Source of the DNA: Clostridiales bacterium
GTDB taxonomy: Bacteria > Bacillota > Clostridia > DUOD01
DNA: 22,205 bases
Reading direction: 5' to 3'
Assembly: GCA_012838995.1 (NCBI GenBank)
Contig: DUOD01000018.1
Span: 1-22,205, forward strand
The notes beneath the pieces were generated by a model. The model saw only the letters and a program-made list of their open reading frames with translations. It was not told where the DNA came from and searched no databases. The position numbers and the translations under genes are program-made. Positions within the stretch are counted from its first letter, which is position 1. Each line of letters opens with the position of its first letter. This document shows, piece after piece, positions 2,846-20,510 of this stretch.

Positions 2846-2875
2846 ATGTGGTGGGGGGAAGGCCTCCCACCACAT
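2846..2875 (+). terminator. GC-rich hairpin after the M24-like gene (terminator or attenuator candidate)
   Basis: atgtggtgggg-ggaaggcc-tcccaccacat gives a stem of about 10 bp. It is followed by ttataaata, a weak T-tract. Confidence 0.4.
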
Positions 2876-3017
2876 TATAAATAGTAGGACTTATCTACAT
2901 GCCTACTTTTCAAAGGCAGGCTAATATTATAAGCCCCGTGGAGGGAATGGGGATATACGCTTGCGACAAGATAATCACCACAAATTCTTAAATACTAATA
3001 ACGATGGGAGATTAGAT

Positions 3018-4178: not shown

Positions 4179-4223
4179 GATAAAAAGACAACATTTGTTG
4201 TTGGACAAAAATAATTTAGCCGG

Positions 4224-4315
4224 AAAAAATAAAAATTTAAATAAAAGAAGGAATTTTAAAATTTGTGTAGAATATAAATAGACAAATGATATTATAGTTA
4301 GAACATATGTAAACA
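4224..4315 (+). promoter_or_regulatory. Repeated promoter-like module, copy A (orphan: no ORF of 60 aa or more follows on this strand for ~940 nt)
   Basis: An A-rich upstream tract is followed by GAAGGAATT (4247-4255), an 11-nt spacer and GTAGAATAT (4267-4275). The conserved inverted repeat ACAAATGAT-N11-AACATATGT lies at 4282-4310. The module is near-identical to copies at 10199-10267 and 10330-10400. Confidence 0.5.
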
Positions 4316-4886
4316 GAACAGTGCGCCACAAGTTAAGTTTTGGAGAATACCGGCGCGCTAAAAAGCCTATTACCAATGGTATATCGCTCTTTGAAAACTG
4401 AATATTTTGCATAAAGCCTTTAAGCTGAAAAAATTTGTGCTTCATCAAATTGTATGCGCCAAAATTAGCCGTAGTTGCCTTAGTATATGCCCTTTTAAGA
4501 ATTTTAGCAGAATATATACCGGATGAAGTGCTTAATATTTTAGATGCTAAAAAAGCTTATAAACATCATGCGGAAATTGATTTTGAATAGCTGTAAGTAG
4601 CATGCATACTGAATAGCAAAATCCACAGTAACTGTAAAGCATTTTAGGAGCACGTTTATATCACTTTTACAATAAAAACAGTTCAACCCCTTATTACATG
4701 ATAAGTTACAGAGTAACATTTAAACCAAATAAATATAACACAAGTACCTAAGTCGACCCTAAAGTATTAGCTATGCTCTATTTACAGCTCTTCTCATTAA
4801 TTAAAGTATTTTAAGTTAGCTGTAGACATAAAATGCAAAATAGTATACTTTATTAATGAAATTTTTAAAGAAGACGGTAGCAGAAA

Positions 4887-4915
4887 GAAGGATTTTTGAA
4901 ACTTATGTAGAATAA
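4887..4915 (+). promoter_or_regulatory. Repeated promoter-like module, copy D (candidate promoter of the ABC-transporter operon)
   Basis: GAAGGATTT (4887-4895), an 11-nt spacer, then GTAGAATAA (4907-4915). It lacks the downstream inverted repeat seen in copies A-C and lies ~340 nt upstream of the SBP start codon. Confidence 0.45.
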
Positions 4916-5116
4916 TAATTAATCGTCAAGCTAACTTTTGCTGAGTAAATATAGGATGGTCTTAAGGAGATTACGGCTGGTTGTGATAAGTGTCAGTAAA
5001 TGTTAAAATATCTATGACTCTGGCATCTCAGCCAAAAAGTGCAAAACCTATAAAGTCCTTCCTCGAAGAGTAATCTTAAATAATCTATACAATTATAGAA
5101 TTAACGACGGTATCAT

Positions 5117-5179
5117 GCAGGATAGCTTCACCGTTGGCGAGACGGCACGACGCTATACTTAGAAAGAAGTATATCCTGC
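5117..5179 (+). promoter_or_regulatory. Structured element in the 5' leader of the ABC operon (12-bp bulged stem enclosing a small hairpin)
   Basis: GCAGGATA-g-CTTC (5117-5129) pairs with GAAG-ta-TATCCTGC (5166-5179). The inner hairpin is ccgt-tggcgag-acgg. I recognise no known riboswitch core. Confidence 0.3.
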
Positions 5180-5256
5180 TGATATATAAGGTAAAGCCCC
5201 AAATTAAAAAGCAAACAGGGGGTTTTACACAAAAAAAAATAAGGAGGAAGTAGTTT

Positions 5257-6360
5257 ATGAACAAGAAAAAAATCTTTGCAGTGCTGATGTGTCTTGTCTT
5301 GGTAGCAGTTTTTGCGCTGACAGCATGTGGAACACCTGCTGAAGAGACACCATCCGAGACACCGGCTCAAGAAGAACCGGCTCAAGAAACTCCGGCTCAA
5401 GAAGAACCGGCAGAAGAGGCACCTACAGCTGAAAGCGACGAACAATTCGAAATAGTTATGATAGCTAAGACCGAAGGTCTGGCTTGGTTCGACGCTATGA
5501 AACGAGGTGTCGCAGAATTTAACGACGATTTTGCTGATGTAAATGCTTACCAGCATTCGCCGGAAGGAGCCGACGCTGCAAAGCAGGCCGCAATGATTGA
5601 AGACTACATTGCAAAGGGCGTTGACGCAATATGCTGCGTACCTAACGATCCCAAGGCTTTGATACCTGTTGTTCAGAAGGCTAAAGAAGCCGGCATAGTA
5701 GTCGTAATCCATGAAGGCGAAGACCTTGCAGGCATAGCTGACTGGGACGTTGAAGTATTTGACAACTATGAATTCGGTCGAGTTATGGGTCAGAAGTTGG
5801 GTGAAGCAATGGGCGGCAAAGGCAAATACGCTGCTAACGTTGGCGGTCTTACCATGCAGACCCATATGCAATGGTGGCAAGGCGGTACAGACTATATCAA
5901 GGAAAACTTCCCTGATATAGAACTGGTTAATGAACAGCCTTACGAAGACCAAGACGACGCTGCAATTGCCTACGACATCTGCAAAGAAATCCTCAGGGCT
6001 CATCCCGACCTGAACGGGTTCCTCGGATGTACTGTTGAATCAGGTTCATCCATGTGCCGTCTCTTGAAGGAAACTAACAACAAGAACGTTAAGGTTTCCT
6101 GCTTGGCAGTACCGTCCGCTCTTGGCGAATACATCAAAGAAGGCTGGTGCGCTAACGGCCAGGGTAACTCACCTATCGATGCCGGTTATGCAACTGTAAT
6201 GTGTGCATACAAGGTGCTCAAGGGTGAAACCATCGAAGAAGGCAGCACCGTTGACCTTGGCAAGCCAGGAATGGATAACTGCAACGTCAAAGATGGAGTT
6301 ATCAAAGGAGATGCAACAATTATATTCACTCCGGAAAATGTAGACCAATACGATTTCTAA
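5257..6360 (+). CDS. Sugar ABC transporter substrate-binding lipoprotein (type I periplasmic-binding fold, CUT2 / RhaS-LsrB-RbsB-like)
   Basis: AAGGAGG RBS. The signal peptide carries lipobox LTAC (Cys24) and is followed by a PAQEE-type low-complexity linker. The PBP core includes IVMIAKTEGLAWFDAMKRGV and GVDAICCVPNDP. Confidence 0.85.
   Translation: MNKKKIFAVLMCLVLVAVFALTACGTPAEETPSETPAQEEPAQETPAQEEPAEEAPTAESDEQFEIVMIAKTEGLAWFDAMKRGVAEFNDDFADVNAYQHSPEGADAAKQAAMIEDYIAKGVDAICCVPNDPKALIPVVQKAKEAGIVVVIHEGEDLAGIADWDVEVFDNYEFGRVMGQKLGEAMGGKGKYAANVGGLTMQTHMQWWQGGTDYIKENFPDIELVNEQPYEDQDDAAIAYDICKEILRAHPDLNGFLGCTVESGSSMCRLLKETNNKNVKVSCLAVPSALGEYIKEGWCANGQGNSPIDAGYATVMCAYKVLKGETIEEGSTVDLGKPGMDNCNVKDGVIKGDATIIFTPENVDQYDF
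5362..5421 (+). repeat. Four copies of a 15-nt imperfect tandem repeat encoding the (P-A-Q-E-E/T) lipoprotein tether
   Basis: ccggctcaagaagaa / ccggctcaagaaact / ccggctcaagaagaa / ccggcagaagaggca read directly. Confidence 0.8.
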
Positions 6361-6377
6361 AAATATGAAGAAGACAT

Positions 6378-6417
6378 CGGGGTTGAATAAATCTTTATTC
6401 AACCCCGAAGTATTTTT
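6378..6417 (+). terminator. Intercistronic stem-loop plus T-tract between the SBP and ATPase genes (partial terminator/attenuator)
   Basis: Perfect 13-bp stem cggggttgaataa-atct-ttattcaaccccg (6378-6407), followed by aagtattttt. This arrangement is common in ABC operons to raise SBP stoichiometry. Confidence 0.65.
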
Positions 6418-6440
6418 AAACTGGGGGCGATGTTGTCGAT

Positions 6441-7943
6441 ATGGGTTCTTTAATATTAGAGGCAAAAAATTTGTATAAATCTTTTGGTGCTGTGCAGGCT
6501 CTAAAAAACGTAAGTTTTGAGGTGGCGCCTGCCGAAATACATTGTCTAGTTGGTGAAAACGGCTCAGGAAAGTCTACATTTGTAAAGACCGTTGCCGGTG
6601 TACATCCACCGGATTCGGGTGAAATAATACTAAACGGCAACTCCTATCCTAAGGTTAACGTTAGAGAGGCCATAAAGGAAGGTATTCAGGTAATTTACCA
6701 GGACTTGTCACTGTTTCCTTCCATGACCGTGGCGGAGAATATTGCAACCAATAGGATGATAGCCGAAAACAGGCGTTTTATTAATTGGAAAGAAATAAGG
6801 GAGATTGCTGCGAAGCAGCTAGAAAGAATAGGCGTTTCTTTGGATTTGGACGAAGCCGTAGAAAATTTATCCGTTGCCAATAGGCAACTTGTAGCCATTT
6901 GTAGGGCACTAAGTCTGGATGCAAAGCTGATTTTCATGGACGAACCTACAACGGCATTAACCAAAACCGAAGTTGACAGGCTCTTGAATATAGTTTTGGA
7001 TCTAAAGAGCAAGGGCATTTCGGTTGTCTTTATAAGTCATAAACTTGATGAAGTTATGGAAGTAGCCGATTTGGTTTCCATCTTTAGAGACGGTGAAAAA
7101 GTTGGTGACTTCCCAAGCTCTGAAGTAAACGAAAAAATGCTGGTTTACCACATGACCGGACGAAAGGTCGAATATCCGAGATATAACAGAACCTATAAGG
7201 ATGACACACCGGTACTGGAAGTGAAAAATCTTACCAGCAACGGTAAATATGAGGATGTAAGCTTTACGGTAAGAAAAGGGGATATATTGGGATTGACCGG
7301 ACTTCTGGGAGCCGGAAGGACGGAACTGGCCTTAACCCTTTTTGGTCTGAATCCACAAGATTCAGGAAAGATTATATTGGAAGGAAAGGAACGAAAGTTC
7401 ACTACACCCTATCAAGCAATTAAATCCGGAATATCCCTGGTTCCGGAAAACAGACAAACTCAGGGCTGTTATATGAACAAGAGTATAACCGATAATGTTG
7501 CGGCCCCGATATTGGATAGGATGGCAAATGGTGGGGGCGTATTGAATGTCAATAAGATGAAGGAGCATGCAGAGGATACCGTAAAGACACTTAGGGTGGT
7601 TACAGCGGGTATATCCACTGAACTCCAGAATTTATCCGGTGGTAATCAACAGAAGGTAGTATTGGGCAAATGGATTGGAACCAATCCCAAAGTATTGATT
7701 CTTGACTCTCCTACGGTAGGTGTTGACGTAGGATCGAAGGAAGAAATTTACCAGCATATACAGAAATTCGCAGCACAGGGAACTGCGGTAATCCTGATTT
7801 CTGACGAAATACCGGAAATACTTGCTAACTGTAACAAACTAATCGTTATGAAAAAAGGAAAAGTCGTTGGTCGTTTAGAAAGTGACGATCTAAATGTTGC
7901 TGACGTTAGAGACAGAATTCACGCATTAATGGATTCAAATTAA
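6441..7943 (+). CDS. Sugar ABC transporter ATP-binding protein with tandem ABC domains (RbsA/RhaT-like, CUT2)
   Basis: 500 aa. Walker A is GENGSGKST, the second domain has GLLGAGRTE, the signature is LSGGNQQK, and Walker B sites are IFMDEPT and LILDSPT. Confidence 0.9.
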   Translation: MGSLILEAKNLYKSFGAVQALKNVSFEVAPAEIHCLVGENGSGKSTFVKTVAGVHPPDSGEIILNGNSYPKVNVREAIKEGIQVIYQDLSLFPSMTVAENIATNRMIAENRRFINWKEIREIAAKQLERIGVSLDLDEAVENLSVANRQLVAICRALSLDAKLIFMDEPTTALTKTEVDRLLNIVLDLKSKGISVVFISHKLDEVMEVADLVSIFRDGEKVGDFPSSEVNEKMLVYHMTGRKVEYPRYNRTYKDDTPVLEVKNLTSNGKYEDVSFTVRKGDILGLTGLLGAGRTELALTLFGLNPQDSGKIILEGKERKFTTPYQAIKSGISLVPENRQTQGCYMNKSITDNVAAPILDRMANGGGVLNVNKMKEHAEDTVKTLRVVTAGISTELQNLSGGNQQKVVLGKWIGTNPKVLILDSPTVGVDVGSKEEIYQHIQKFAAQGTAVILISDEIPEILANCNKLIVMKKGKVVGRLESDDLNVADVRDRIHALMDSN

Positions 7944-7960
7944 AAAGGGGAGACAGAAAA

Positions 7961-8986
7961 ATGAAATCTAATGCTATCAAGAAATTTTTCAGTAAAACAG
8001 AAGGCTATATTCTGTTGATAGTAATAGTGTACTGTATTATCGTAGCCGCTGTAAACCCCAACTTTATGACCCCAGGCAACTTCCTTGACCTAATCCGTTC
8101 GTCATCCTGGTATTGGATATTGGGATTTGGTGTGTTGCTGGTGTTACTTTCGGGGGGGATAGATGTTTCATATACGGCTATAGCTATTTGTAGTGGATAT
8201 GTATCTGCTTGTGTTATTCAGCGTACGGGAATAGAGAACCTGGCCTTTGCCTTCTTTATTGCAATTTTAATAGGCCTTTGGTTCGGCGCTATTAACGGAT
8301 TTTTAATACACTACTTTAGGCTGCCTACCCTTATTGCAACTTTAGGTACAAAGACAATTTTTATCGGTATTATGGCGGCGCTTGTAGGTGTAGAAGCTAT
8401 AAATACAGACCACTTACCCGCTGTATTTAAGGATTTCGGTTTGGCAAAACTATTCACTGTACCAACTGAAACGGGTGCGGAATACGGCCTTTCGGTATTC
8501 TTTATTCCACTGGTGATCTTAGGTATATTAACGTGGTTTATACTGTATCGCACTCAAATCGGTAGGAGCGTCGTTGCCCTTGGCAATTCGGAAGTATCGG
8601 CCGAGCGTGCGGGCTACAACCTGTTTAAGACTCGTATGTTTATATATATGTACGTAGGAGCCTTAGCCGCCGTGGCAGGTGTAATTGCCATTTCAGACGT
8701 TGCTTGGATTGCACCTCTCTCAAGTACAATGATACGAGGAACCGAGCTGACCATTATTGCAGCATTAATTATAGGCGGTGTAAAGCTGACAGGTGGAGAA
8801 GGTACGGTATTTGCTTCGATTATTGGATTGTTACTTGTAAGACTGTTTGAAACAACACTCATATTCCTCGGATTAACTTCATCATGGCAGAACTTCTTTA
8901 CCGGATTGGTATTCGTAGCCAGCTTGTCGGTGACATCGCTACAGAGGGCAAGAAAGAGACGTCGTATGCTCTTATTTGAAGAATAA
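7961..8986 (+). CDS. Sugar ABC transporter permease (RbsC/RhaP-like)
   Basis: 341 aa, AGGGGAG RBS and a multi-TM hydrophobic profile. The GGIDVS motif is typical of CUT2 permeases. Confidence 0.85.
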   Translation: MKSNAIKKFFSKTEGYILLIVIVYCIIVAAVNPNFMTPGNFLDLIRSSSWYWILGFGVLLVLLSGGIDVSYTAIAICSGYVSACVIQRTGIENLAFAFFIAILIGLWFGAINGFLIHYFRLPTLIATLGTKTIFIGIMAALVGVEAINTDHLPAVFKDFGLAKLFTVPTETGAEYGLSVFFIPLVILGILTWFILYRTQIGRSVVALGNSEVSAERAGYNLFKTRMFIYMYVGALAAVAGVIAISDVAWIAPLSSTMIRGTELTIIAALIIGGVKLTGGEGTVFASIIGLLLVRLFETTLIFLGLTSSWQNFFTGLVFVASLSVTSLQRARKRRRMLLFEE

Positions 8987-9002
8987 TGGGGGTAGACTAG
9001 TT

Positions 9003-10049
9003 ATGAAGAAAGGAATTAATAGTTTTGGAGATAGATTATTACAATCAGAAGATGTTAACGTACTAATATTGACAATTACTTTCGTTGCTGTTTTAGTGGT
9101 TTTGTCCATAGTTTTAGGTGGAACGTTTCTATCTGCCGCAAACTTCCAATCAATGGGCTTTCAGATACCTGAGTTTGGTCTCTTATCCCTTGCAATGTCC
9201 TTGTGCATGCTTGCCGGCGGGATAGATCTTTCTATAGTAGGAAACGCCAATTTATCAAGCGTATTAGCCGCTTATACACTACTGGCCCTGTCGGAAAACG
9301 GCGGTAACCCGATTATTGCAATAATTGTTGCAATCGTTGTCGGGTTGGTGGTTGGTGTAGGATGCGGCCTGCTGAACGGCTTACTGATTGCTAAGGTATC
9401 AATCCTTCCCATACTGGCTACGCTGTCGACTATGATTTTATACGACGGTATTGCCATGGCTCTAACGGACGGAAAAACCGTTTTGGGCTTCCCCTTGGAG
9501 TTTTCCAAGATGGCCATAGCCAAGGCGGGCGGTATACCCGGTGTTTTCATAGTATTTGTGGTAGTAGCGATAATAATCTCTTTAGTACTGACCCGTACGT
9601 TCTTTGGTAAGAATATTTACCTGTACGGTGCCAACAAAACAGTATCACTGTTTTCAGGAATAAGGGTAAATTCCCTCATACTGAAAACCTATGCGATATC
9701 CGGGTTGTTTGCCGGTATTGCCGGGTTGATGTTAATGGCCCGTGTTAACTCAGCCAAGGTTGGATATGGTGATACCTACCTACTCCAAACCATGTTGGTT
9801 AGTATCCTCGGCGGGGTAAGTCCTACCGGTGGTAAGGGTAAAGTTTTAGGCGTATTCTTGGGAATTCTTGTTCTGCAAATGCTGCAGAGCGGCTTTACGT
9901 TGCTGGGTGTCGAGCCGTACTTTAGGAACTTCATCTGGGGCGTTGTCCTAATCGGTGTAATGATTGCAAACTTCTACATCGAAAGAAGCAAGAAGAAGAT
10001 CAAAAGGCCAAAAGCTACAGCCAAGGAAGCCCAACAACCAGTAGCATAA
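9003..10049 (+). CDS. Second sugar ABC transporter permease (RbsC/RhaQ-like)
   Basis: I prefer the ATG at 9003 to the overlapping TTG at 8976. It is multi-TM, has the GGIDLS motif and ends in a basic C-terminal tail. Confidence 0.85.
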   Translation: MKKGINSFGDRLLQSEDVNVLILTITFVAVLVVLSIVLGGTFLSAANFQSMGFQIPEFGLLSLAMSLCMLAGGIDLSIVGNANLSSVLAAYTLLALSENGGNPIIAIIVAIVVGLVVGVGCGLLNGLLIAKVSILPILATLSTMILYDGIAMALTDGKTVLGFPLEFSKMAIAKAGGIPGVFIVFVVVAIIISLVLTRTFFGKNIYLYGANKTVSLFSGIRVNSLILKTYAISGLFAGIAGLMLMARVNSAKVGYGDTYLLQTMLVSILGGVSPTGGKGKVLGVFLGILVLQMLQSGFTLLGVEPYFRNFIWGVVLIGVMIANFYIERSKKKIKRPKATAKEAQQPVA

Positions 10050-10169: not shown

Positions 10170-10270
10170 AAAAAAATTATAAAAACTTGCTAAAAAAAGA
10201 AGGATTATTGAAGTTTGTGTAGAATAACTTATAGAAGCACAAATGTTAATGCGGCATGAACATATGATAC
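10170..10270 (+). promoter_or_regulatory. Repeated promoter-like module, copy B (distal of two tandem copies upstream of sorC)
   Basis: GAAGGATTA (10199-10207), an 11-nt spacer, then GTAGAATAA (10219-10227). The inverted repeat ACAAATGTT-N11-AACATATGA lies at 10239-10267. Confidence 0.5.
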
Positions 10271-10301
10271 AAAGCTCGATGCCGTAACCCGGTTTTAACC
10301 A

Positions 10302-10405
10302 TAAAAAAATAAAAAATTAGCTTCTAAAAGAAGGATTTTTTGAATTTGTGTAGAATAGTACTTTTAAGGTGACAAATGTTAATGACGTTAGAACATATGT
10401 AAACA
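10302..10405 (+). promoter_or_regulatory. Repeated promoter-like module, copy C (proximal, 64 nt before the sorC ATG)
   Basis: GAAGGATTT (10330-10338), an 11-nt spacer, then GTAGAATAG (10350-10358). The inverted repeat ACAAATGTT-N11-AACATATGT lies at 10372-10400. Confidence 0.55.
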
Positions 10406-10421: not shown

Positions 10422-11381
10422 ATGGAAAATATTGATAGGGTTAATATGCTGGTTAACATATCGAGGTTATATTATGAACATGATTATAGCCAGCAGCAAA
10501 TAGCGGAAAAACTGGGTTTATCACGGCCTTATGTATCAAAATTGATAAAAGAAGCCAGAAATGCAGGTATTGTTAATATAGTCATCAATGATCCTAATGA
10601 AGCTGAAACCGAAATAGAGGCCAAAATAAGAAAGAAATTCGGTCTTGAAAAAGTCATAGCAGTGCCTCTTAATAAGCCTAGCAGACAAAATATTTTGGAC
10701 AAGTTAGGGGTCGCTGCATCTAAATTTTTAAATTCTATAGTAAAAGACGGAGATATTATAGGCGTTACCTGGGGTGCTACCTTATATGCTTGTTCCCGCA
10801 ATTTAATCCCCAGAGAGGATATAAAGGACATAACAGTTGTCCAGATATGCGGGGGCGTAAGCAAGTTGGACAAAAATATATATGCTACTGAAATACCTAA
10901 GAAGTTTTCTGAAGTTTATCATGGGGTTCCCTATATTTTACCCCTACCGGCCATCCTCGACGATATAAAGGTAAAAAATGCAGTACTCCATGACAAAAAC
11001 ATCAATGACGTATTGAACATAGCAAGGCAGGCCAACATCAACATCTTTACCATGGGCACCTTCGGTTATGAGAGTGCCCTGACCAAGGCAGGCTATATTA
11101 GCAAGGAAGAGGTGGACCGACTGCATCTTAAGGGGGCAGTGGGGGACATTTGCGCAAGAATCATAGATATCAATGGAAACATATGCGACGAAAAGCTTAA
11201 CGAAAGGACCGTTGCCATAGACCTGGATGAACTAAAACTCAAAGATTGGAGAATAGCAGTAGCTACAGGTAGCAACAAGGTAAAATGCATCATCGGTGCT
11301 CTACGGGGAGGGTACGTAAACGTACTCATTACCGATGAGGAGACAGCTCTAGAAATATTAAGTATTATAGATAAGGAGTAA
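10422..11381 (+). CDS. SorC/DeoR(Bsu)-family transcriptional regulator (N-terminal HTH plus sugar-phosphate-binding domain)
   Basis: 319 aa. The HTH is YSQQQIAEKLGLSRPYVSKLIKEAR. GVTWGATL, VQICGG and the C-terminal ITDE are typical of the SorC sugar-binding domain. Its stop codon is 2 nt before the pduL start. Confidence 0.85.
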   Translation: MENIDRVNMLVNISRLYYEHDYSQQQIAEKLGLSRPYVSKLIKEARNAGIVNIVINDPNEAETEIEAKIRKKFGLEKVIAVPLNKPSRQNILDKLGVAASKFLNSIVKDGDIIGVTWGATLYACSRNLIPREDIKDITVVQICGGVSKLDKNIYATEIPKKFSEVYHGVPYILPLPAILDDIKVKNAVLHDKNINDVLNIARQANINIFTMGTFGYESALTKAGYISKEEVDRLHLKGAVGDICARIIDINGNICDEKLNERTVAIDLDELKLKDWRIAVATGSNKVKCIIGALRGGYVNVLITDEETALEILSIIDKE

Positions 11382-11383
11382 CA

Positions 11384-12022
11384 ATGATTAAGGATGCAAT
11401 AAAGAGAATCATAACAAATGAAATACTAAAGGCAACCATAAAAAAATATGGATTATACTTCTTACCGGCTGCTGTTTCCAATAGGCATATTCATCTCTCC
11501 AAGGAAGATAAAGAGAAACTTTTCGGAAGAGGGTATCAATTAAGGCCAATAAAGGAGCTTTCCCAACCCGGGCAATATGCCTGTGAGGAAAGGGTCACCA
11601 TAATAGGCAAAAAGGGTACCATCGAAAATGTAAGAGTATTGGGCCCCGAGAGAAAGGAAACCCAGCTTGAGGTATCCGTAAGTGACTGTTACACATTAGG
11701 GATAAAGCCGGTAATAAGGATGTCGGGGGATTTGGATAACACCCCGGGCATAACCATAGAAGGCCCTAAGGGTCGGGTAGAACTTCAAAAAGGTGTAGTA
11801 GTTGCAGCCCGCCATCTTCACATTTCCGAAGAGGAAGCAAAACTTTACGGTCTTAAAGACGGCGATGTGATAAGGGTGAAGAAATCGGGAATAAGGGAGA
11901 CGATTTTTGGAAACGTGCTGGTTAGATCAGGTTCCGGTCACAGGTTGGAATTGCATTTTGACATTGAAGAAGCCAATGCAGCGGGTATTAAAAACGGAGA
12001 CCTGCTATTAATAGAAAAATAA
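11384..12022 (+). CDS. pduL: Phosphotransacylase PduL (BMC-associated PTAC) with an N-terminal amphipathic helix
   Basis: 212 aa. It has the two diagnostic repeats SNRHIHLS and ARHLHIS. The N-terminus KDAIKRIITNEILKATIKK resembles an encapsulation peptide. Confidence 0.85.
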   Translation: MIKDAIKRIITNEILKATIKKYGLYFLPAAVSNRHIHLSKEDKEKLFGRGYQLRPIKELSQPGQYACEERVTIIGKKGTIENVRVLGPERKETQLEVSVSDCYTLGIKPVIRMSGDLDNTPGITIEGPKGRVELQKGVVVAARHLHISEEEAKLYGLKDGDVIRVKKSGIRETIFGNVLVRSGSGHRLELHFDIEEANAAGIKNGDLLLIEK

Positions 12023-12041
12023 GTTTAACAGGAGAGCGTAA

Positions 12042-12764
12042 ATGGACGTAGATCTGTTAATTGATGAAATTACAAAAAATGTTGTTTCACGACTTAAGGA
12101 CGAAATGTGCATAAGGGCTTTTGATGAAAGCAAAAGCGAAAACCGAATACTGGTTCTGCTGCCCGAGAATGTTTTAAGTATTGGGAAATTTCTCAACTAT
12201 GTTAAGGGTAAGTATGAAGATGGAGAACTTCTGGTAGCAGGTAATGTAGAAACCTTGGACGGAGTTTTAAAACCCGAACTGAGCAACAGCATAACATGCG
12301 TTAATATACAGGACAAGCATATACGGCATAAAGTGGGCAGCATTTTTGATAGTTATAAGGAGGTATGCTGTATAGCTCCCGGCATAAAACTTCTGGAGAA
12401 TATTGCCAAGGGAGACGATTCCCAATTTATCGAATACCTTTTGCTGCAAGGCATACTTCATAAAAAGCCCACGACAATTTATGTCGACTACATGCCCAAC
12501 GGCATTTCGTCCGATGGTTTGATGGGTAAGGTATCAACCTTGTTCAGAGAAATAGAAGCATCGGGCATTAAAGTGGAAAACATAGACAGGCAAACCGATG
12601 CAGTTATCAGTGCTGAAAAAGTATACCAAGACGGCCTGATAACCGAGCAGGATATCGACGAAATGTGGGCAAACGGGGTTACCGAGGTGGATTGCTCAAG
12701 ATGCATAGTAACGCCCCTTGCCAAGGACAGGGCCAAGGAACTGTCCATAACACTGAAGTATTAA
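12042..12764 (+). CDS. BMC-associated protein of unknown function with an encapsulation-peptide-like N-terminus
   Basis: 240 aa with an AGGAGA RBS. The N-terminus is MDVDLLIDEITKNVVSRLKDE. The C-terminal segment LITEQDIDEMWANGV...CIVTPLAKDRAKELSI is a short module I recall recurring in BMC loci. No catalytic motif recognised. Confidence 0.6.
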   Translation: MDVDLLIDEITKNVVSRLKDEMCIRAFDESKSENRILVLLPENVLSIGKFLNYVKGKYEDGELLVAGNVETLDGVLKPELSNSITCVNIQDKHIRHKVGSIFDSYKEVCCIAPGIKLLENIAKGDDSQFIEYLLLQGILHKKPTTIYVDYMPNGISSDGLMGKVSTLFREIEASGIKVENIDRQTDAVISAEKVYQDGLITEQDIDEMWANGVTEVDCSRCIVTPLAKDRAKELSITLKY

Positions 12765-12983
12765 CCAATGAAGCATGGATATAGGATGGTTAGCCTTAAA
12801 GAAGTAAGGAGTATGGCATAAAACCATGGACATGCCGAAAAATCGGCAATTAACAAGCGGTGTTAAACATTAAGTTAAAATTTATGTATTATCTATAAAG
12901 TATGGCATGAAAGCATTACACCAACAGACGAAAACAAATAAAAGCAATATCCTATTTAGCAAATAGACAGGGTGGTGTTAAAA

Positions 12984-14429
12984 ATGGCGATAACGAAGGA
13001 AAGAATTGAAGAAATAATTAGGGAGATGAACATGCACTTTGGCTCCAGTGTGGGGAGTACTACAACAGGTGTAAGAAGCAGTTCAATCTCGAGCCAGCCA
13101 AGAGGTCAGCTGGGGATCTTTTCAGATGTGGAGGATGCAATAGCGGCAGCAAAGGCCTCCCAAATAGAGCTAATTGCATTGGGTCTGGAAAAGAGACGCA
13201 AGATAGTAGAGGCCATGCGAAAAGCGGCTATTGATAATGCAGAGCATCTTGCGATAATGGCAGTTGAAGAAACAGGCTTTGGCAAAGTGGAACACAAAAT
13301 CGCAAAAAACTTGCTGGCCGCTGAAAAAACTCCGGGTATTGAGGATTTGGTTTCAACCACATATACCGGCGATGACGGGCTAACCCTTATTGAGGGAGCA
13401 CCCTTTGGTGTGATAGGTGCCATAACACCGTCGACAAATCCAGCAGCTACTATAATAAACAACGGTATAAGCATGGTAGCGGCTGGAAATTCTGTAGTTT
13501 TTAACCCCCATCCCGGTGCAAAAGAGGTTACCAATGAAGCCATTAGAATACTAAACAAAGCAATTATGAGTGCCGGTGGGCCTAGCAATGTGTTATGCAG
13601 TACCGAAAACCCTACAATAGAGTCCAGTAATACGATAATGAAACATAAAGATATTGCCATCCTTGTGGTAACCGGAGGAGAAGGCGTGGTAAGGGCGGCC
13701 ATGAACAGCGGCAAGAAGGTTATAGCTGCAGGACCGGGCAACCCGCCGGTGATAGTTGACGATACCGCAGATATAAAGAAGGCTGCAAAGGATATTGTGG
13801 ACGGAGCAAGCTTTGACAATAATATTCTCTGTATAGCCGAGAAGGAAGTTTTCGTATTTAGAAATGTTGCAGACCGGCTAATAGAAGAGATGATAAAAAA
13901 CGGGGCTTACCTTGCAAACAAGTCCACAGGAGAAATAGAAAAGATCAAGAACACCGTTTTTGAAACCAAAGGCGGCAAGACTGTGTTAAATAAAAAATTT
14001 GTCGGTAAAAGTGCCAATTATATCTTAAGCAAGAGTAATATAGATGTAAACGGCGAATACAAGCTGATCATTGCTGAAGTAGATGCAACCCATCCCTTTG
14101 TACTTACTGAAATGTTAATGCCCGTTTTACCCATTGTAAGGGTAGACAGCATAGACGAAGCAATACAGAAGGCGCTGGATGCTGAGCAAGCCAATAGACA
14201 TACAGCTCTCATGCACTCGCAAAATGTAACTAACCTTACAAAGGCTGCCAGGGCTCTTAACACTACAATCTTTGTAAAGAATGCACCGTCTTATGCCGGA
14301 TTGGGATATCAAGGTGAAGGATACACAACACTGACCATAGCAACGCCTACAGGGGAAGGGTTAACCTCTGCACGCACTTTTACCAGACAGAGAAGATGTA
14401 CATTGTATGGTTCCTTTAGGATTATTTAA
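12984..14429 (+). CDS. CoA-acylating aldehyde dehydrogenase (PduP/EutE-like) with N-terminal encapsulation peptide and Ser/Thr/Gly linker
   Basis: I prefer the ATG at 12984 (AGGGTGGTG RBS) to the GTG at 12972. The catalytic Cys lies in FDNNILCIAEKE and the C-terminus reads TFTRQRRC. The N-terminus KERIEEIIREMNMHF plus ..QPRGQLGIFSDVEDAIAAA parallels Salmonella PduP (..QPQGKGIFQSVSEAIDAA) as I recall it. Confidence 0.85.
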   Translation: MAITKERIEEIIREMNMHFGSSVGSTTTGVRSSSISSQPRGQLGIFSDVEDAIAAAKASQIELIALGLEKRRKIVEAMRKAAIDNAEHLAIMAVEETGFGKVEHKIAKNLLAAEKTPGIEDLVSTTYTGDDGLTLIEGAPFGVIGAITPSTNPAATIINNGISMVAAGNSVVFNPHPGAKEVTNEAIRILNKAIMSAGGPSNVLCSTENPTIESSNTIMKHKDIAILVVTGGEGVVRAAMNSGKKVIAAGPGNPPVIVDDTADIKKAAKDIVDGASFDNNILCIAEKEVFVFRNVADRLIEEMIKNGAYLANKSTGEIEKIKNTVFETKGGKTVLNKKFVGKSANYILSKSNIDVNGEYKLIIAEVDATHPFVLTEMLMPVLPIVRVDSIDEAIQKALDAEQANRHTALMHSQNVTNLTKAARALNTTIFVKNAPSYAGLGYQGEGYTTLTIATPTGEGLTSARTFTRQRRCTLYGSFRII

Positions 14430-14460
14430 TCAGCTGAGTATAAGCTAAGGAGTTGTAGTC

Positions 14461-15792
14461 ATGGCAAAAAGTTTTTATGATAGGATTTTTGATGCAGGAG
14501 TCATAGGAGCAGGCGGCGCCGGGTTTCCTACCCACATAAAAGTAAATGCTAAAGCCGATGTGGTATTGGCCAACGGTGCAGAATGCGAGCCCTTACTAAG
14601 GGTTGACCGTCGCATAATGGAGCACTACCCTGATAAGGTGGTAGAGGGTCTCCAAGTGGCGATGAGGGTAAGCGGTGCGGCCAAGGGATATATATGCTTG
14701 AAAGCTAAGTATAAATTGGCAGTGGAACGACTACAGAATGCCATAGGCAATAAAAAGAAAATTGAGTTGTTTTTGCTGGATAACTATTATCCAGCGGGTG
14801 ACGAACAGCAGATTGTACATGAGGTTACCGGCAAAGTAGTACCTCCCGGCGGGATACCGCTGGATGTAGGAGCGGTGGTGTGCAACGTAGGTACCTTGGT
14901 CAATATAGCAGATGCAGTTGAAGACATCCCGGTGACCCATAAATTAGTTACAGTTACCGGTGAGGTAAAAAACCCCATTACAATAAAGGTGCCGGTGGGA
15001 ACGCCCATGAAGCTACTGATAAAGGAAGCCGGCGGTCCCGATGAAGGCCAAGGATATGCATTAATAGAAGGCGGGCCGGCCATGGGCAAGGTCCAGGAGG
15101 ACTGGTCATCACCCGTTAAAAAGACTACCGGGGGACTGATAGTACTTCCGTCCAACCATTTGGTTATAAGGAAGAAAGAGGGACCCTCGGAATCGGATTA
15201 CAGACTGACCAAATCGGTATGCTGCCAATGTAGTTATTGCACTCAACTGTGTCCAAGGAACAACATAGGATTGGGTGTACAACCCCATAAGGTAATGAGG
15301 GGTATAGGATACGGCAGAGGTGATGCAATAGGCAATATAAATGACGTATTTTCATGCTGTGACTGCGGATTATGTACCTATTATGCCTGCTACATGGGCC
15401 TCAAACCGGGTACCATGGTTACCACCATTAAGAATGCCCTTCTCAAGAAGGGAATAAGACCGCAGAAAGAAAGAGTAAAAGAAGTTAATCCGGCATGGGA
15501 ATACAAAAAGGTGCCAACCGAAAGATTTATTCAGAGACTTGGGTTGAGCAAGTATGACGTCGATGCTCCTATGGTGGACAAAGAAATCGCTGTAGATAAG
15601 GTAAGGATCCCTCTCAAACAGCATATTGGTGTACCGGCTACACCGGTGGTTGAAGTGGGAGCGGATGTCCAGGTCGGTGATCTAATCGGTGCGGTTGAAA
15701 AAGACAAGGTAGGGGCTAATGTCCATGCCAGCATAGATGGCAAAGTCACCTTTGTTTCCAAAGAATTAATTGAAATTTCTGCAAGAGGGTAG
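14461..15792 (+). CDS. pduS: PduS-like / RnfC-family flavo-iron-sulfur oxidoreductase
   Basis: 443 aa with an AAGGAG RBS. The nucleotide-binding region is GAGGAGFPTHIK...ANGAECEPLL. Two Cys clusters are present, CCQCSYCTQLCP and CCDCGLCTYYAC. The C-terminal segment IPLKQHIGVPATPVV..GD.V.VGDLIG resembles an RnfC barrel-sandwich domain. Confidence 0.8.
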   Translation: MAKSFYDRIFDAGVIGAGGAGFPTHIKVNAKADVVLANGAECEPLLRVDRRIMEHYPDKVVEGLQVAMRVSGAAKGYICLKAKYKLAVERLQNAIGNKKKIELFLLDNYYPAGDEQQIVHEVTGKVVPPGGIPLDVGAVVCNVGTLVNIADAVEDIPVTHKLVTVTGEVKNPITIKVPVGTPMKLLIKEAGGPDEGQGYALIEGGPAMGKVQEDWSSPVKKTTGGLIVLPSNHLVIRKKEGPSESDYRLTKSVCCQCSYCTQLCPRNNIGLGVQPHKVMRGIGYGRGDAIGNINDVFSCCDCGLCTYYACYMGLKPGTMVTTIKNALLKKGIRPQKERVKEVNPAWEYKKVPTERFIQRLGLSKYDVDAPMVDKEIAVDKVRIPLKQHIGVPATPVVEVGADVQVGDLIGAVEKDKVGANVHASIDGKVTFVSKELIEISARG

Positions 15793-15804
15793 GGGGATGG
15801 ATTC

Positions 15805-16350
15805 ATGGATGCATTAGGAATGATTGAAATAAATAGTGTAGCAGCTGGTATAGAAGCCGGAGACGCAATGTTAAAGACTGCAGGGGTTACTTTGGTTAAC
15901 GCGCAGCCGGTATGCGCGGGCAAATATATTGTGACCGTTCAAGGTGCTGTTGCGGAGGTTACCAGTTCTGTCAACGCAGGAAAGGAGAGCGCCGGAGATT
16001 CTCTGGTAGACAGCTTCATTATACCCAACGTACACCCCCAAGTGTTTTCAGCATTAGCCTGTGCTTCGGATATAGATGTCGACAATGCCGTAGGAGTAAT
16101 AGAGACATTCTCATTGTCTGCCTGTGTTGTAGCTGCTGATGCTGCCGTTAAAGCAGCTGAGGTTGATCTGCTGGAAATAAGACTTGGGATGGGGCTCGGC
16201 GGCAAATCCTTCGTAATACTAAGTGGAGACGTAAGCGCAGTTAGACATTCCGTTGAATCAGCCGAAAGCAGTATCGGAATAGAGGGGTTGGTAGTACGTA
16301 CTGTTGTTATACCTTCACCCCACAAAGATATTGTTAAGGCTTTGATATAG
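15805..16350 (+). CDS. pduT: Tandem-domain BMC shell protein (BMC-T), PduT-like, with the candidate Fe-S-ligating Cys
   Basis: 181 aa with two BMC domains, [22 protein letters not shown] and [22 protein letters not shown]. Cys37 in PVCAGKY aligns with TICPGKF (Cys38) of Salmonella PduT as I recall it. Confidence 0.8.
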
Positions 16351-16387
16351 ATACCCAATATTAATGCGTGAGGTGATGAAGCAGGTT

Positions 16388-16669
16388 ATGATCAAAGAAG
16401 CATTAGGTATGGTTGAAACAAGAGGTTTAGTAGGAGCTATAGAGGCTGCCGACGCCATGGTTAAAGCGGCAAGTGTCAAACTAATAGGCAAAGAAAAGGT
16501 AGGCGGTGGACTGGTTACCGTAATGGTAAGAGGTGATGTTGGAGCGGTAAAGGCAGCCACCGAAGCCGGAGCAGCAGCTGCAAAAAGGGTTGGCGAGCTT
16601 GTATCCATGCACGTTATTCCAAGGCCTCATAGCGATGTGGATGGCATTTTACCAAAGGCATCTGTGTAA
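16388..16669 (+). CDS. BMC-H hexameric shell protein (PduA/EutM-like), pore motif KVGGGL
   Basis: [25 protein letters not shown]...[21 protein letters not shown]...VHVIPRPH. I chose the start at 16388 by analogy with the PduA N-terminus. In-frame ATGs at 16364 and 16376 cannot be excluded. Confidence 0.85.
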
Positions 16670-16802
16670 GCCGGCAAGGCGAATAGCTAAACATTTTTCC
16701 AGGTAGGGGCCATTCTAAAATTAAAGAATTTATAAAGTTTTGCAACAATGGTTTAAGCACAGGACATATCCATGTCTTAATTTTTGAAAATGTTGATAAT
16801 TA

Positions 16803-16823
16803 CAATGTATTAAATATACATTG
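16803..16823. promoter_or_regulatory. 8-bp inverted repeat CAATGTAT-taaat-ATACATTG in the spacer between the two BMC-H genes (operator candidate)
   Basis: Read directly. It overlaps a possible sigma-A-like promoter, TTGATA-N16-TATACA. Confidence 0.3.
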
Positions 16824-16889
16824 GATTAAATGCAACCCAAAATAAAAACAAAAATTATTACAACAAAAATTGAAAGGAGAAAGTGGTCA

Positions 16890-17186
16890 ATGATTGATAA
16901 GGAAGCATTAGGTATGGTTGAAACAAGAGGTTTAGTAGGAGCAATTGAGGCTGCTGACGCTATGGTAAAAGCAGCAAACGTAAGATTGATAGGAAAGGAA
17001 AAAATAGGCAGCGGTCTCGTAACCGTTATGGTAAGAGGCGACGTTGGAGCAGTTAAGGCATCCACCGAAGCCGGTGCTGCAGCTGCAAAAAGGGTTGGAG
17101 AACTTGTATCCGTACACGTCATCCCAAGACCTCATACAGATGTTGAGCAGATTCTGCCCAAGGCAACTTGCAGCGATAGCGAATAA
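16890..17186 (+). CDS. Second BMC-H hexameric shell protein (PduA-like), pore motif KIGSGL
   Basis: I prefer the ATG at 16890 (AAAGGAGA RBS at 16873-16880) to the track start at 16830. It is about 80% identical by eye to the upstream paralog and shares an identical 41-nt DNA block with it. Confidence 0.9.
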
Positions 17187-17369
17187 GTTTGTATATAGTC
17201 AGTATAGTTGGCAATACAGTGTTTACAATTAAAAATGCAACCTATCTGGGCTTTGAATCTTTAACAGTCCGGCAGTTGGATTGTAAATTTTTACCGCGCA
17301 CTGACGGTTTTAAAACAGCTGACAATATATGTGTGGGACAAAGTGGTTATATAGAGACATTTAGTTAGA

Positions 17370-17443
17370 GGACGCCAGCAGGATGGCGATAAACATTACC
17401 CGAGCAGCTATAGGTGCCGTGATTGTTGGTGTCCTTTTTATTT
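17370..17443 (+). terminator. Long imperfect hairpin followed by T5AT3 between the shell genes and deoC (terminator/attenuator candidate)
   Basis: ggacgccagcag (17370-17381) pairs with ttgttggtgtcc (17423-17434), giving 12 bp with 4 G-U pairs and a 41-nt loop. tttttattt follows. An alternative local hairpin, cgcca-gcagga-tggcg, competes for the 5' arm. Confidence 0.4.
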
Positions 17444-17496
17444 CAAACTCGATAAAGTAGATACAATCTATATACAAAAGGGTGATTGATTTGGAA

Positions 17497-18279
17497 ATGG
17501 ACAAACTTATAGAAAAACTAACCGAAGAGATATACAAAAAAGTATTGGGTGAAATTCAAAAAACCGGAAGTTTTGACAGTATTCCTGTTAGCACTCCCAG
17601 TGGCGGGGATCGTGGTCTAGCCAGCATGATAGATCATACCCTTTTAAAGCCCGACGCAACCGTGGAAGATGTTAAAAAAGTATGCGAGGAAGCAAAACAA
17701 TACGGATTCGCGTCCGTGTGCATAAACCCCGGATATGTACCCTTGGCAGTACAAACACTGAGGGGAAGTAATGTAAAAACTTGTACGGTAATAGGTTTTC
17801 CCTTGGGAGCTACAACCACAAAGACAAAGGTTGAAGAAACAAAAGAGGCATTAGAAAACGGTGCCAAGGAAATTGACATGGTAATAAATGTGGGTGCTTT
17901 AAAATCCGGCGATATAGATCTCGTAAAAAATGATATAGAAGAGGTAGTAATAGCAGCCAAAGGTAGAGGAATTGTTAAAGTTATCATAGAAACTTGCTTG
18001 TTAACCGATGACGAAAAGGTAAAGGCTTGTACAATAGCCAAGGCAGCTGGAGCGGATTTCGTAAAGACTTCTACAGGCTTTAGCACCGGCGGCGCAACGG
18101 TAGAAGACATTAAATTAATGAGGGAAGTAGTAGGGCCGGACATGGGAGTTAAAGCCTCTGGAGGTATCCGTGATTACGAGACTGCTATGGCGATGATAAA
18201 TGCAGGGGCCAATAGAATCGGAGCCAGCGCTTCAGTGGCTATAGTAAACAAACAAAAAACATCTAAAAAAGGTTACTAG
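17497..18279 (+). CDS. deoC: Deoxyribose-phosphate aldolase family class I aldolase (DeoC/DERA) with a ~40-aa N-terminal extension
   Basis: I prefer the ATG at 17497 (AAGGGTGA RBS) to the GTG at 17482. The core starts at [12 protein letters not shown]. The Schiff-base region DFVKTSTGF and VKVIIET are present. The extension reads [40 protein letters not shown]. Confidence 0.85.
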
Positions 18280-18302
18280 CATTAAGATTTGGAGGGATTG
18301 TT

Positions 18303-19364
18303 GTGGCTCAAAAAATGAGAGCAGTTAGGTTGTTTGCCCCTGGCGACGTAAGGTGTGTAGAAGTTGATATTCCAAAAATCGAACAGCCTGATGATGTAAT
18401 AGTAAAGGTAAAGTCCTGCGGAGTATGCGGGTCTGATATAGCACGAGTTATGGAAAAAGGTGCCTATCGATATCCTATTACCATAGGTCATGAATTTGCA
18501 GGCGAAGTAGCGGAAGTAGGCAGTGACGAATATGGCATAGAAGTGGGAGACAGGGTAGCTGTAATGCCCCTTATACCCTGTGGCAAGTGTAAGTACTGCG
18601 CCATCGGCGAGTTTGTGTTGTGTGACGAGTATCAGTACTACGGTTCTCGAATTGACGGTGCCATGGCCGAGTACATCAGGGTAAAGGCCCACAACATTTT
18701 GAAAATGCCCTTAGGCGTGGACTATGAGGCCGGATCCATGGTTGATCCCACATCTGTAGGGCTCCATGCAGTGAGAAAGACCAAAATAGAGCCCGGCCAA
18801 AGCGGCGTGGTTTTTGGTTTGGGACCCATCGGTCTCATCACCATGCAGTGGTTAAAGGCTTTAGGCTGTGATAAGGTATTTGCCGTTGATATTTTCGATG
18901 ATAAATTGGATTTAGCTGACCGACTGGGTGCAGATTATTGCATTAACGGCAAGAAACAGGATGCAGTAGAAGCAATAATGGAATTAACCTCAGGCGAAGG
19001 TGTGGATATATCTATCGAACTGGCAGGAAGTATAATTACCCAGGATCAAGCTATACGAGCAACTAAAAAGATGGGTACAGTAGTTTACTGTGGTATTTCT
19101 TATGACGACCTTGTTTTATCCAACGCTACAGTAAACAGGATTTTAAGGGGAGAGCTGACAATTAAGGGTTCTTGGAATTCTTCCATTGCACCGCTACCCA
19201 TCAATGAATGGGAAAGCTCACTTAAATTTATGAAAAACGGTAAGGTGAAAGTAAACCCGCTGATATCACATAGATTTAGGCTGGAAGAATGCCAAGAGTG
19301 TTTCAACATGATGTACCATAAAACCGAAGTGTTTAACAAGGTACTGTTTAAACCCGAGGACTAA
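18303..19364 (+). CDS. Zn-dependent MDR-family dehydrogenase (sorbitol / threonine / galactitol-1-P dehydrogenase-like)
   Basis: GTG start 6 nt after GGAGGG. Catalytic motifs are CGVCGSD and GHEFAG, the structural Zn site is CGKCKYCAIGEFVLC, and the Rossmann motif is VFGLGPIGL. Confidence 0.8.
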   Translation: MAQKMRAVRLFAPGDVRCVEVDIPKIEQPDDVIVKVKSCGVCGSDIARVMEKGAYRYPITIGHEFAGEVAEVGSDEYGIEVGDRVAVMPLIPCGKCKYCAIGEFVLCDEYQYYGSRIDGAMAEYIRVKAHNILKMPLGVDYEAGSMVDPTSVGLHAVRKTKIEPGQSGVVFGLGPIGLITMQWLKALGCDKVFAVDIFDDKLDLADRLGADYCINGKKQDAVEAIMELTSGEGVDISIELAGSIITQDQAIRATKKMGTVVYCGISYDDLVLSNATVNRILRGELTIKGSWNSSIAPLPINEWESSLKFMKNGKVKVNPLISHRFRLEECQECFNMMYHKTEVFNKVLFKPED

Positions 19365-19418
19365 ACTCAAAACAGCGGGAAAAATTAATATAATTCGAGT
19401 AATGGAGTTGTATATAAT

Positions 19419-20456
19419 ATGTTAGCTTATGTATATGACGAGCAAGGAAAATTGTCGCTAAAGGATATGCCCCGTCCTACTGCTAAAAATAATACAGCCG
19501 TAATAAAGGTTGGGGCCTGCTCCATATGCGGTACGGATTTTAGAACATATATGCACGGTAGCAGTAAAATTACACCGCCTAGGATCATTGGCCATGAAGC
19601 CGTAGGAACGATAGTTGAAGTAGGCAGGGATGTTATCGGATTCAGTAAAGGCGAAAGGGTTGCCGTTGCCCCCGCTATTGGATGCGGGGAATGTTACCCT
19701 TGCCAAAGCGGTTATCCCAATATGTGCGATGACCTTCAAACGATAGGCTTTCAATTTGACGGCGGCTTTGCGGAATATATGGAAATCCCCGAAATAGCCT
19801 TTAAGATGGGTAATGTAAATAAACTAGGCAGCTTAATCAGCGATGAAGAAGCCAGCCTTGCAGAACCCACGGCTTGTGTGGTAAATGCCCAGGAGTTTCT
19901 GAATATTAAGAAGGGCGATTACGTGGCCGTATTCGGATCAGGATTTATTGGCTGCATGCATGCCGAACTTGCATTTAGGAGCGGGGCTTCCAAGGTGATT
20001 ATAATCGAGGTTTCCGAAAAGAGAATAAAGCAGGCCGAGGAACTTGTTCCCGGAATTATTACTATAAATTCGACGGAAAAGGATCTTATGACCGAAATAA
20101 TGGACATAACCGAGGGAAGAGGAGTAAATGTTGCAATAACGGCATGTTCAGTCGGCAAGGTCCAGGAAGATGCACTGAATATCGCTTCTAAAAGGGGAAG
20201 GATAAGCCTGTTTGGAGGAATCCCCGGCAGTGGCAAGGGATATATCGACAGTAACGTTATACACTACAAAGAACTGTCGGTGTACGGCGTTCATGCATCA
20301 ACACCTCTCCAGAACAAGAAAGTATTGGACTGGATATCCACGGGCAGTTTGAAGGTGGACAAATATGCAAAAAATATTTATCCCCTAAGGGATATTGAAA
20401 AGGCCTTTGAAGCAATTAAAGGCGGGGACGTTTTAAAGGCAATCATCAAGCCATAA
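19419..20456 (+). CDS. Second Zn-dependent MDR-family dehydrogenase (polyol or sugar-phosphate dehydrogenase-like)
   Basis: Motifs CSICGTD, GHEAVG, CGECYPCQSGYPNMC and VFGSGFIGC. Confidence 0.8.
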   Translation: MLAYVYDEQGKLSLKDMPRPTAKNNTAVIKVGACSICGTDFRTYMHGSSKITPPRIIGHEAVGTIVEVGRDVIGFSKGERVAVAPAIGCGECYPCQSGYPNMCDDLQTIGFQFDGGFAEYMEIPEIAFKMGNVNKLGSLISDEEASLAEPTACVVNAQEFLNIKKGDYVAVFGSGFIGCMHAELAFRSGASKVIIIEVSEKRIKQAEELVPGIITINSTEKDLMTEIMDITEGRGVNVAITACSVGKVQEDALNIASKRGRISLFGGIPGSGKGYIDSNVIHYKELSVYGVHASTPLQNKKVLDWISTGSLKVDKYAKNIYPLRDIEKAFEAIKGGDVLKAIIKP

Positions 20457-20510
20457 AATAAACAGGTGTAAAGGCATTATAATTATGATTAAATGGGGGT
20501 TTGTTAATCA

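Follow-up and report, generated by a model that had tools for sequence, protein, structure and literature searches.

The alternative sigma factor SigH of Bacillus subtilis is said, after the 2002 work of Britton et al., to have a regulon centred on sporulation initiation and transition-state functions. Its promoters follow the consensus RNAGGAWWW, a gap of 11 or 12 nt, and RNNGAATWW (quoted in PMC8510167), which is the form that the initial annotation of the locus described below had used. For C. difficile, a set of SigH promoters has been published whose transcription start sites (TSSs) were mapped and whose expression is reduced in a sigH mutant (Table 3 of PMC7438776); these promoters show an extended −35 region AAA(G/A)AGGA, a −10 region (A/G)TGTAGAAT(A/T), and 17-18 nt between AGGA and GAAT. 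The targets of SigH in this bacterium include spoIIAA, spoVS, mreB and a gene for a HIT protein, and also an ABC transporter and metabolic genes (PMC7438776); spoVS is sigma-H-dependent in B. thuringiensis as well (PMC8510167).

The operators of DeoR and CggR are bipartite, and each protein occupies them as a tetramer, a dimer of dimers (PMC11229326). [quoted passage not shown] CggR of B. subtilis is a SorC-family repressor encoded by the first gene of the operon that it represses (cggR/gapA), and its operator is situated 3' of the TSS (PMC11229326). Among bacterial microcompartments, the SPU type is defined by a DeoC aldolase (PF01791) and RpiB (PF02502) encoded together with shell genes (Sutter et al. 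2021, PMC8217296), and it has been proposed that these organelles use detritus-derived sugars (PMC8217296). Here we analyze a locus of an uncultured Clostridia bacterium, represented by metagenome contigs, in which a sugar transporter operon and an SPU-like microcompartment operon are preceded by four copies of a promoter-like element, and we consider it probable, from the arrangement of their sequences, that these copies are sigma-H promoters, combined with a DeoR-type repressor so that expression would be gated by sigma-H and by an inducer.

The window, i.e. the whole stretch of 22,205 nt that was analysed, has a G+C content of 42%, and the genes listed are all on the + strand (Table 1). Like the SPU loci, it encodes a PF01791 aldolase (17482-18279), an aldehyde dehydrogenase, PduL, a PduS-like protein, and both BMC-H and tandem-domain shell proteins, with a regulator and a transporter in the same locus. 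It differs from them in carrying two Zn alcohol dehydrogenases and an FGGY kinase, which suggest a polyol or a deoxy-sugar as the substrate. Neither RpiB (PF02502) nor BMC-P was found among the 20 ORFs of the window that were scanned, and the RpiB gene could lie outside of it; by the published definition the locus is thus SPU-like only, with PF01791 present and PF02502 absent from the scanned ORFs. The 240-aa product of 12042-12764 had no Pfam match. Two single-domain BMC-H genes (16389-16638 and 16895-17143) are 84% identical at the DNA level, and are therefore regarded as recent paralogues. In the binding-protein gene of the transporter operon, three 15-nt tandem repeats (5356-5400) encode a linker rich in Pro, Glu, Ala, Thr and Gln (ETPAQEEPAQ...) that follows the lipoprotein signal. 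The hairpin between the two operons probably insulates the ABC operon from the elements downstream and from the microcompartment operon; its loop exceeds 8 nt, which explains why a simple terminator scan overlooked it.

Table 1. Features of the 22,205-nt window. Predicted TSSs lie 9-10 nt past GAAT, an offset borrowed from the mapped C. difficile promoters.
Feature	Position	Strand	Evidence or detail
Sugar isomerase-like, mutarotase and M24-like genes	176-4178	+	
A/T-rich tract, UP-element-like, 5' of module A	4218..4243	+	Sequence; aligned with the tracts of C and D
Module A, predicted sigma-H-type −35 box AAAGAAGGA	4244..4252	+	Whole-site PWM score 27.8 bits
Module A, predicted −10 box GTAGAATA	4267..4274	+	Predicted TSS ~4282-4283
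Module A, putative operator, dyads ACAAATGA and ACATATGT	4282..4310	+	Pair pattern; alignment with 8 other loci
Decayed partial module copy	4410..4516	+	Direct-repeat families D1 and D4; blastn 4254-4276 vs 4493-4516
Module B, predicted promoter only	4884..4914	+	−35 4884-4892, −10 4907-4914; 27.1 bits; predicted TSS ~4922-4923
Sugar ABC transporter operon (binding protein, ATPase, two permeases)	5257..10049	+	Pfam; 3' of A and B
Probable terminator, perfect 17-bp inverted repeat with 10-nt loop	10098..10141	+	−24 to −26 kcal/mol, z = −5.6
Module C, predicted promoter	10196..10226	+	−35 10196-10204, −10 10219-10226; 23.4 bits; predicted TSS ~10234-10235
Module C, putative operator, dyads ACAAATGT and ACATATGA	10239..10267	+	Pair pattern; locus alignment
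Module D, predicted promoter	10327..10357	+	−35 10327-10335, −10 10350-10357; 24.2 bits; predicted TSS ~10365-10366
Module D, putative operator, dyads ACAAATGT and ACATATGT	10372..10400	+	Contains GAACATATGTAAA
DeoR-subclass SorC-family regulator, first gene of the microcompartment operon	10422..11381	+	Pfam Sugar-bind and N-terminal HTH
Microcompartment operon, first part: PduL, 240-aa protein, aldehyde dehydrogenase, PduS-like flavoprotein	11384..21992	+	Pfam
Microcompartment operon, rest: three BMC shell proteins, DeoC/LacD aldolase, two Zn alcohol dehydrogenases, FGGY kinase	11384..21992	+	Pfam

The initial annotation had pointed out four sites sharing one core with an identical internal spacing, and the scan agreed with this: GAAGGAWTW-N11-GTAGAATA has exactly four matches in the window, all of them on the + strand and intergenic. 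The pattern GAAGGAWTWNNNNNNNNNNNGTAGAATA occurs without mismatches at 4247-4274, 4887-4914, 10199-10226 and 10330-10357, against 0.04 sites expected from shuffles, and no extra site appears in the window when up to two mismatches are allowed. According to their positions the copies were named A (4247), B (4887), C (10199) and D (10330). Copies C and D are a tandem pair in front of the regulator gene, with 131 nt from start to start, the distance first reported for their −10 boxes (10219 and 10350), and they align over 113 nt at about 75% identity; A aligns with both over approximately 100 nt at 70-76%, and B has in common with the other three only a core of about 37-57 nt. The A-rich tract described 5' of three of the copies is likewise present. 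Six independent metagenome assemblies, obtained from different samples, agree at 100% over the 372-nt intergenic region that contains C and D, which excludes an assembly artefact; the near-identical strains L001-L006 show zero polymorphism across it, so no signal of selection within the species can be obtained there.

The 1.08 kb between 4179 and 5256, which contains A, the decayed copy and B, has no credible ORF (the longest on the + strand is of 51 aa). The decayed copy retains a −10-like TTTAAGAATTTTAGCAGAATATA and has lost the AGGA box, and the region as a whole looks as if a promoter cassette had been duplicated in tandem repeatedly and had then decayed. As a separate observation, the 335-nt leader that would extend from promoter B to the binding-protein gene (4922-5256) has a folding energy of −88.9 kcal/mol (z = −4.8 against shuffles) and matches nothing in Rfam, and may represent a cis-regulatory RNA not yet characterised.

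Each of the four copies carries GAAGGA(A/T)T(T/A), in agreement with the −35 consensus RNAGGAWWW, and exactly 11 nt further GTAGAATA(T/A/A/G), in agreement with RNNGAATWW. Three copies have no mismatch to the complete consensus with an N11 spacer and the fourth has one, a G at the last W of copy D, so the nearly perfect fit noted at first holds. The copies also agree with one another at positions where the B. subtilis consensus is free (AAAGAAGGA, TGTAGAATA). The distance of 17 nt between AGGA and GAAT is one of the two spacing classes of C. difficile (GAAT at index 26).

A position weight matrix (PWM) with two boxes and a spacing term was built from 34 SigH promoters of C. difficile that fall in two main spacing classes (PMC7438776). 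When the window was scanned on both strands with this matrix, A, B, D and C, in this order, obtained the four highest scores, from 27.8 to 23.4 bits, and the fifth-ranked site scored 13.4 bits. The training promoters themselves, scored by leave-one-out, reach at most 27.5 bits, with 19.5 bits as their median; all four sites therefore equal or exceed the top quartile of this set, and score like the best of its members, for example CD0142, CD1264, cwp27, spoIIAA and spoVS. Both boxes of CD0142 (AAAAGAGGATTATGAGAGTTCGTGTAGAATATA) and of CD1264 are nearly identical to those of the window. In 100 mononucleotide shuffles of the window the best score averaged 13.5 bits (sd 2.5); the single highest value was 23.1 bits, and since one shuffle in 100 reached it, one site by itself is not conclusive. 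The C. difficile promoters differ from those predicted in the window in being backed by mapped TSSs and mutant data; besides, none in the published set is reported before a microcompartment or joined to a SorC/DeoR operator (PMC7438776).

The same sites could be read as sigma-A promoters of the type '−10 plus UP element', in which TAGAAT would be the −10 box, the A-tracts would offset the missing −35 box, and the GAAGGA block would either be there by chance or bind an activator. TAGAAT does match TATAAT at 5/6 positions, and the A-rich tracts 5' of three copies suit this reading. However, the absence of a TTGACA-like hexamer, already remarked on before this analysis, was borne out, as at most 2/6 positions match at 16, 17 or 18 nt 5' of TAGAAT in the four sites; the TG of a possible TGn extended −10 is one position out of register, and a generic sigma-70 scan of the window listed none of the four sites. 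In addition, the block treated as dispensable, AAAGAAGGA, is the most conserved one over the nine loci described below, and the two-box motif is also found ahead of spoIIA and spoVS operons. A sigma-A identity is hence unlikely, and the proposal that the sites fit sigma-H better than sigma-A is supported by the scores obtained with the C. difficile matrix, by the occurrence of the motif at operons of the SigH regulon, and by the conservation of the two boxes in the nine loci; the four sites are thus best described, on these comparisons, as putative sigma-H-type promoters.

Loci with a gene for a relative of the regulator, 585 kb in all, were scanned with the C. difficile matrix; counting the window, nine independent loci carry the cassette formed by the predicted promoter and a pair of downstream dyads: the window, L007 (a Christensenellaceae MAG), L010 (Negativicutes), L012 (Veillonellaceae), L013, L027 (a Clostridiales MAG), L052, L183/L184 (regulator 74% identical) and L186/L187 (66% identical). 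The window, L007 and L027 are microcompartment loci, and the remainder are ABC-transporter or polyol loci; every one of them encodes an orthologue of the regulator. Over the nine loci AAAgAAGGA and GTAGAA(T) have a high information content and the spacer a low one; in L012 the gap is the alternative one of 18 nt, and the distance from the promoter to the first dyad ranges over 12 nt. Conserved boxes, a free spacer and a variable distance to the operator indicate that selection acts on a two-box promoter and on an operator distinct from it, as opposed to one rigid binding site. A second, independent tandem pair was found in L183/L184, with copies 171 nt apart that are identical over at least 53 nt. 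In these contigs both cassettes lie 3' of the regulator gene (L183, 1511-1734; L184, 1495-1717), and each contig stops within the second copy. Canonical sigma-A promoters of the TTGACA-17-TATACT type, accompanied by related palindromes of the TGTCATATGACA type, precede the regulator genes of the orthologous loci L051 (~5850-5950) and L011 (~5880-5990); as judged from these motifs, the operator family persists in both loci and the promoter class is different, so the sigma-H type would be a specific choice and not the default promoter look of the group.

The possibility that the motif is specific to this locus was addressed by an exact scan of a metagenome collection with the pattern GAAGGAWWWWW-N5-TT-N-TGTAGAATA, for which the chance expectation is a rough estimate. 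At least 119 stretches carry the pattern. In 63 non-redundant matches, conservation extends to positions left free by it, with AA before GAAGGA and T before TG, which indicates a real motif class and not chance. Among the matches listed, the strict motif lies ahead of a complete spoIIAA-spoIIAB-sigF operon in L114 (NCBIfam equivalogs), of spoVS in L063, L109 and L116, of the hibernation factor gene hpf/yvyD in L087, and also of mreB, zapA and the gene of a HIT-family protein; among the same matches there are transporters, binding proteins, a ribose-type sugar-binding protein and a polyol dehydrogenase. This use of the motif at operons of the SigH regulon was seen in metagenomic Firmicutes other than the source genome. 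Being abundant in unrelated contigs, and standing before hallmark SigH operons, the strict motif behaves as a general clostridial SigH-type promoter, and the candidate of a motif dedicated to the locus was discarded for this reason. Some of the matches stand before housekeeping-type genes (HU, pta, panB), so a strict link of this promoter type to the stationary phase may not hold in some lineages. The strict motif was also observed before the gene of a conserved membrane protein whose C terminus bears a SPOR domain in L058, L068, L069, L074, L089, L102, L120, L122 and L124; the contigs with this protein form a large family of sediment and subsurface origin.

These results bear as well on the suggestion, made when the repeats were first noticed, that a dedicated sigma factor could read them. 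Another alternative sigma factor with SigH-like specificity, either a SigH paralogue or one dedicated to the regulon, might be envisaged given that about 12 of the 19 PWM matches of at least 17 bits in the 585 kb are directly followed by the same dyads with a 21-bp spacing, a proportion that could reflect a dedicated system. Nonetheless, neither the window nor the related loci examined encode a sigma factor, and at every base the motif agrees with the general clostridial SigH consensus, and it precedes classical targets in many contigs. We therefore regard a sigma factor other than SigH as improbable.

A further reading takes the copies not as promoters but as a repeated protein-binding site, or as what remains of a small element, mobile or repetitive, that multiplied within the locus. 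In favor of this reading, the four copies and the decayed one occur within 6 kb and in tandem, and contigs of the relatives break at the repeats. Against it, the copies are intergenic, are oriented to the downstream operons and lie 56-335 nt ahead of the start codons; the two boxes alone are conserved, with a free spacer; neither terminal inverted repeats nor target duplications are present; and the motif precedes unrelated genes in many genomes. This reading seems to us highly improbable. A mini-ORF with GAAGGA as its Shine-Dalgarno sequence was also rejected by eye, as the frames differ between the copies and stop after 4-10 codons.

The predicted sigma-H promoters A, C and D are accompanied by a second element that had been overlooked at first. 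In these three modules the −10 box is followed by two ACAWWTGW dyads exactly 21 bp apart, which start at 4282 and 4303 (A), 10239 and 10260 (C), and 10372 and 10393 (D). The pattern ACAWWTG-N14-ACAWWTG occurs in the window at A, C and D only, where 0.32 sites are expected, and no such pair is present 3' of module B. The period of 21 bp is invariant in 11 instances. With the offset taken from C. difficile, the dyads would occupy positions from about +1 to +35 relative to the predicted TSS. Two dyad half-operators separated by approximately two helical turns are what a dimer of dimers is expected to bind. Moreover, GAACATATGTAAA, in the second dyad of A and D, is identical to 13 contiguous nucleotides of the right half-operator of B. 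subtilis DeoR, as seen on the reverse complement of this operator (TTGAACATATGTAAATTGG...). The dyad pairs of A, C and D hence match, in architecture and partly in sequence, bipartite operators of the DeoR/SorC type, and the presence of an operator 3' of the promoter explains why the repeat extends over about 100 nt and not merely 29. A search for cre (CcpA) sites gave none near the modules; two matches with one mismatch elsewhere in the window are at the level expected by chance.

The sequence 3' of the −10 box could act, instead of as a DNA operator, as an RNA hairpin in the 5' leader, i.e. as an attenuator or a stability element. The two dyads can pair with each other, and 73.9% of the cells form standard pairs; yet 71.4% are paired after shuffling of the partners, and 160 of 500 shuffles reach the observed value, so that there is no excess covariation. 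Rfam finds nothing in the window at a permissive E-value, and each dyad keeps one consensus and the 21-bp period of SorC operators, which is difficult to reconcile with an RNA element. A structured RNA leader formed by the two dyads was discarded given the missing covariation support, and we give the hairpin reading very little credence.

The DNA operators that we favor are presumed to be bound by the 319-aa product of the regulator gene at 10422-11381. Its best match in the PDB is B. subtilis DeoR (8r7y; E = 2.3e-73, residues 8-313, with the DNA-binding domain included), which is its closest solved relative. Further likenesses to the DeoR system are the organization in two half-operators, the common 13 nt, and a DeoC-family aldolase in the window. 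The two systems differ in the position of the operator, which lies at −60 to −21 in B. subtilis whereas those of the window would be at about +1 to +35, 3' of a sigma-H-type promoter; in contrast to the B. subtilis arrangement, the regulator gene of the window is inside the operon that it would regulate. In these two respects the locus resembles cggR/gapA, where the repressor gene is also the first of the operon and the tetramer-bound bipartite operator is also 3' of the TSS, repression being a proposal in the case of the window. CggR has, however, a winged-helix DNA-binding domain and recognizes another operator sequence, and its match to the regulator of the window is weak (E = 4e-8) and restricted to the effector domain.

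From this architecture we infer that RNA polymerase with the SigH (Spo0H) orthologue of the organism would use all four promoters, through the extended −35 AAAGAAGGA, the −10 GTAGAATA, the 17 nt between AGGA and GAAT, and the A/T-rich tract upstream, and that transcription would begin about 9-10 nt past GAAT. A DeoR-like tetramer, as a dimer of dimers, would prevent initiation when bound to the start regions of A, C and D; transcripts arriving from C would likewise be stopped by the tetramer at module D. A sugar-phosphate effector would release the repressor. The microcompartment operon, including the repressor gene, would in this manner depend on two tandem repressible sigma-H promoters (C and D), and the regulator, as the product of the first gene, would be autoregulated as is cggR. 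The ABC transporter would have one repressible promoter (A) and one that lacks the operator (B). The latter could provide a basal uptake that is SigH-dependent and independent of the repressor, letting the inducer enter the cell; since a terminator scan detected none between A and B, promoter A may add an inducible contribution to the expression of the transporter. An operator-less module B followed by a long structured leader hints at a further layer of control. The net logic would be that of sigma-H activity, in post-exponential growth or under nutrient limitation, AND the presence of the substrate. Dependence on a transition-state or stationary-phase sigma factor was initially judged unusual for a sugar catabolic organelle. 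The dependence itself stands as the favored reading, but the word 'unusual' is somewhat overstated given the SigH-dependent ABC transporter and metabolic genes documented in C. difficile (PMC7438776). Together with the use of detritus sugars proposed for SPU microcompartments, those genes make transition-phase gating plausible.

SigH-type promoters and SorC/DeoR operators are both of known kinds, and the finding reveals no new type of mechanism; we found in the literature no description of a sigma-H promoter joined to a SorC/DeoR operator in the control of a microcompartment, and in this sense the combination and its context appear to be new. If confirmed, the expression of an SPU-like microcompartment and of its transporter would be under a transition-phase and not a housekeeping sigma factor, with a DeoR-like repressor giving the substrate specificity. 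This would supply a testable regulatory logic for a widespread and uncharacterised class of microcompartments thought to scavenge sugars derived from detritus, and it would tell when to seek these organelles in cultures and metatranscriptomes, namely in the post-exponential phase and with the inducer present. It would also offer a compact promoter-operator cassette and a predicted operator consensus for the DeoR subclade, usable for expressing and studying such loci in Clostridia. More tentatively, and at somewhat less than an even chance, we propose that 'sigma-H AND DeoR' is a portable cassette kept by selection in several lineages of Clostridia and Negativicutes, repeatedly amplified in tandem, which controls aldolase-type microcompartment loci and loci for the scavenging of polyols and sugars. 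Were this so, the organelles would be built only in nutrient-limited, post-exponential cells that sense the substrate, and the formation of microcompartments would be subject to a growth-phase gate that has so far not been described.
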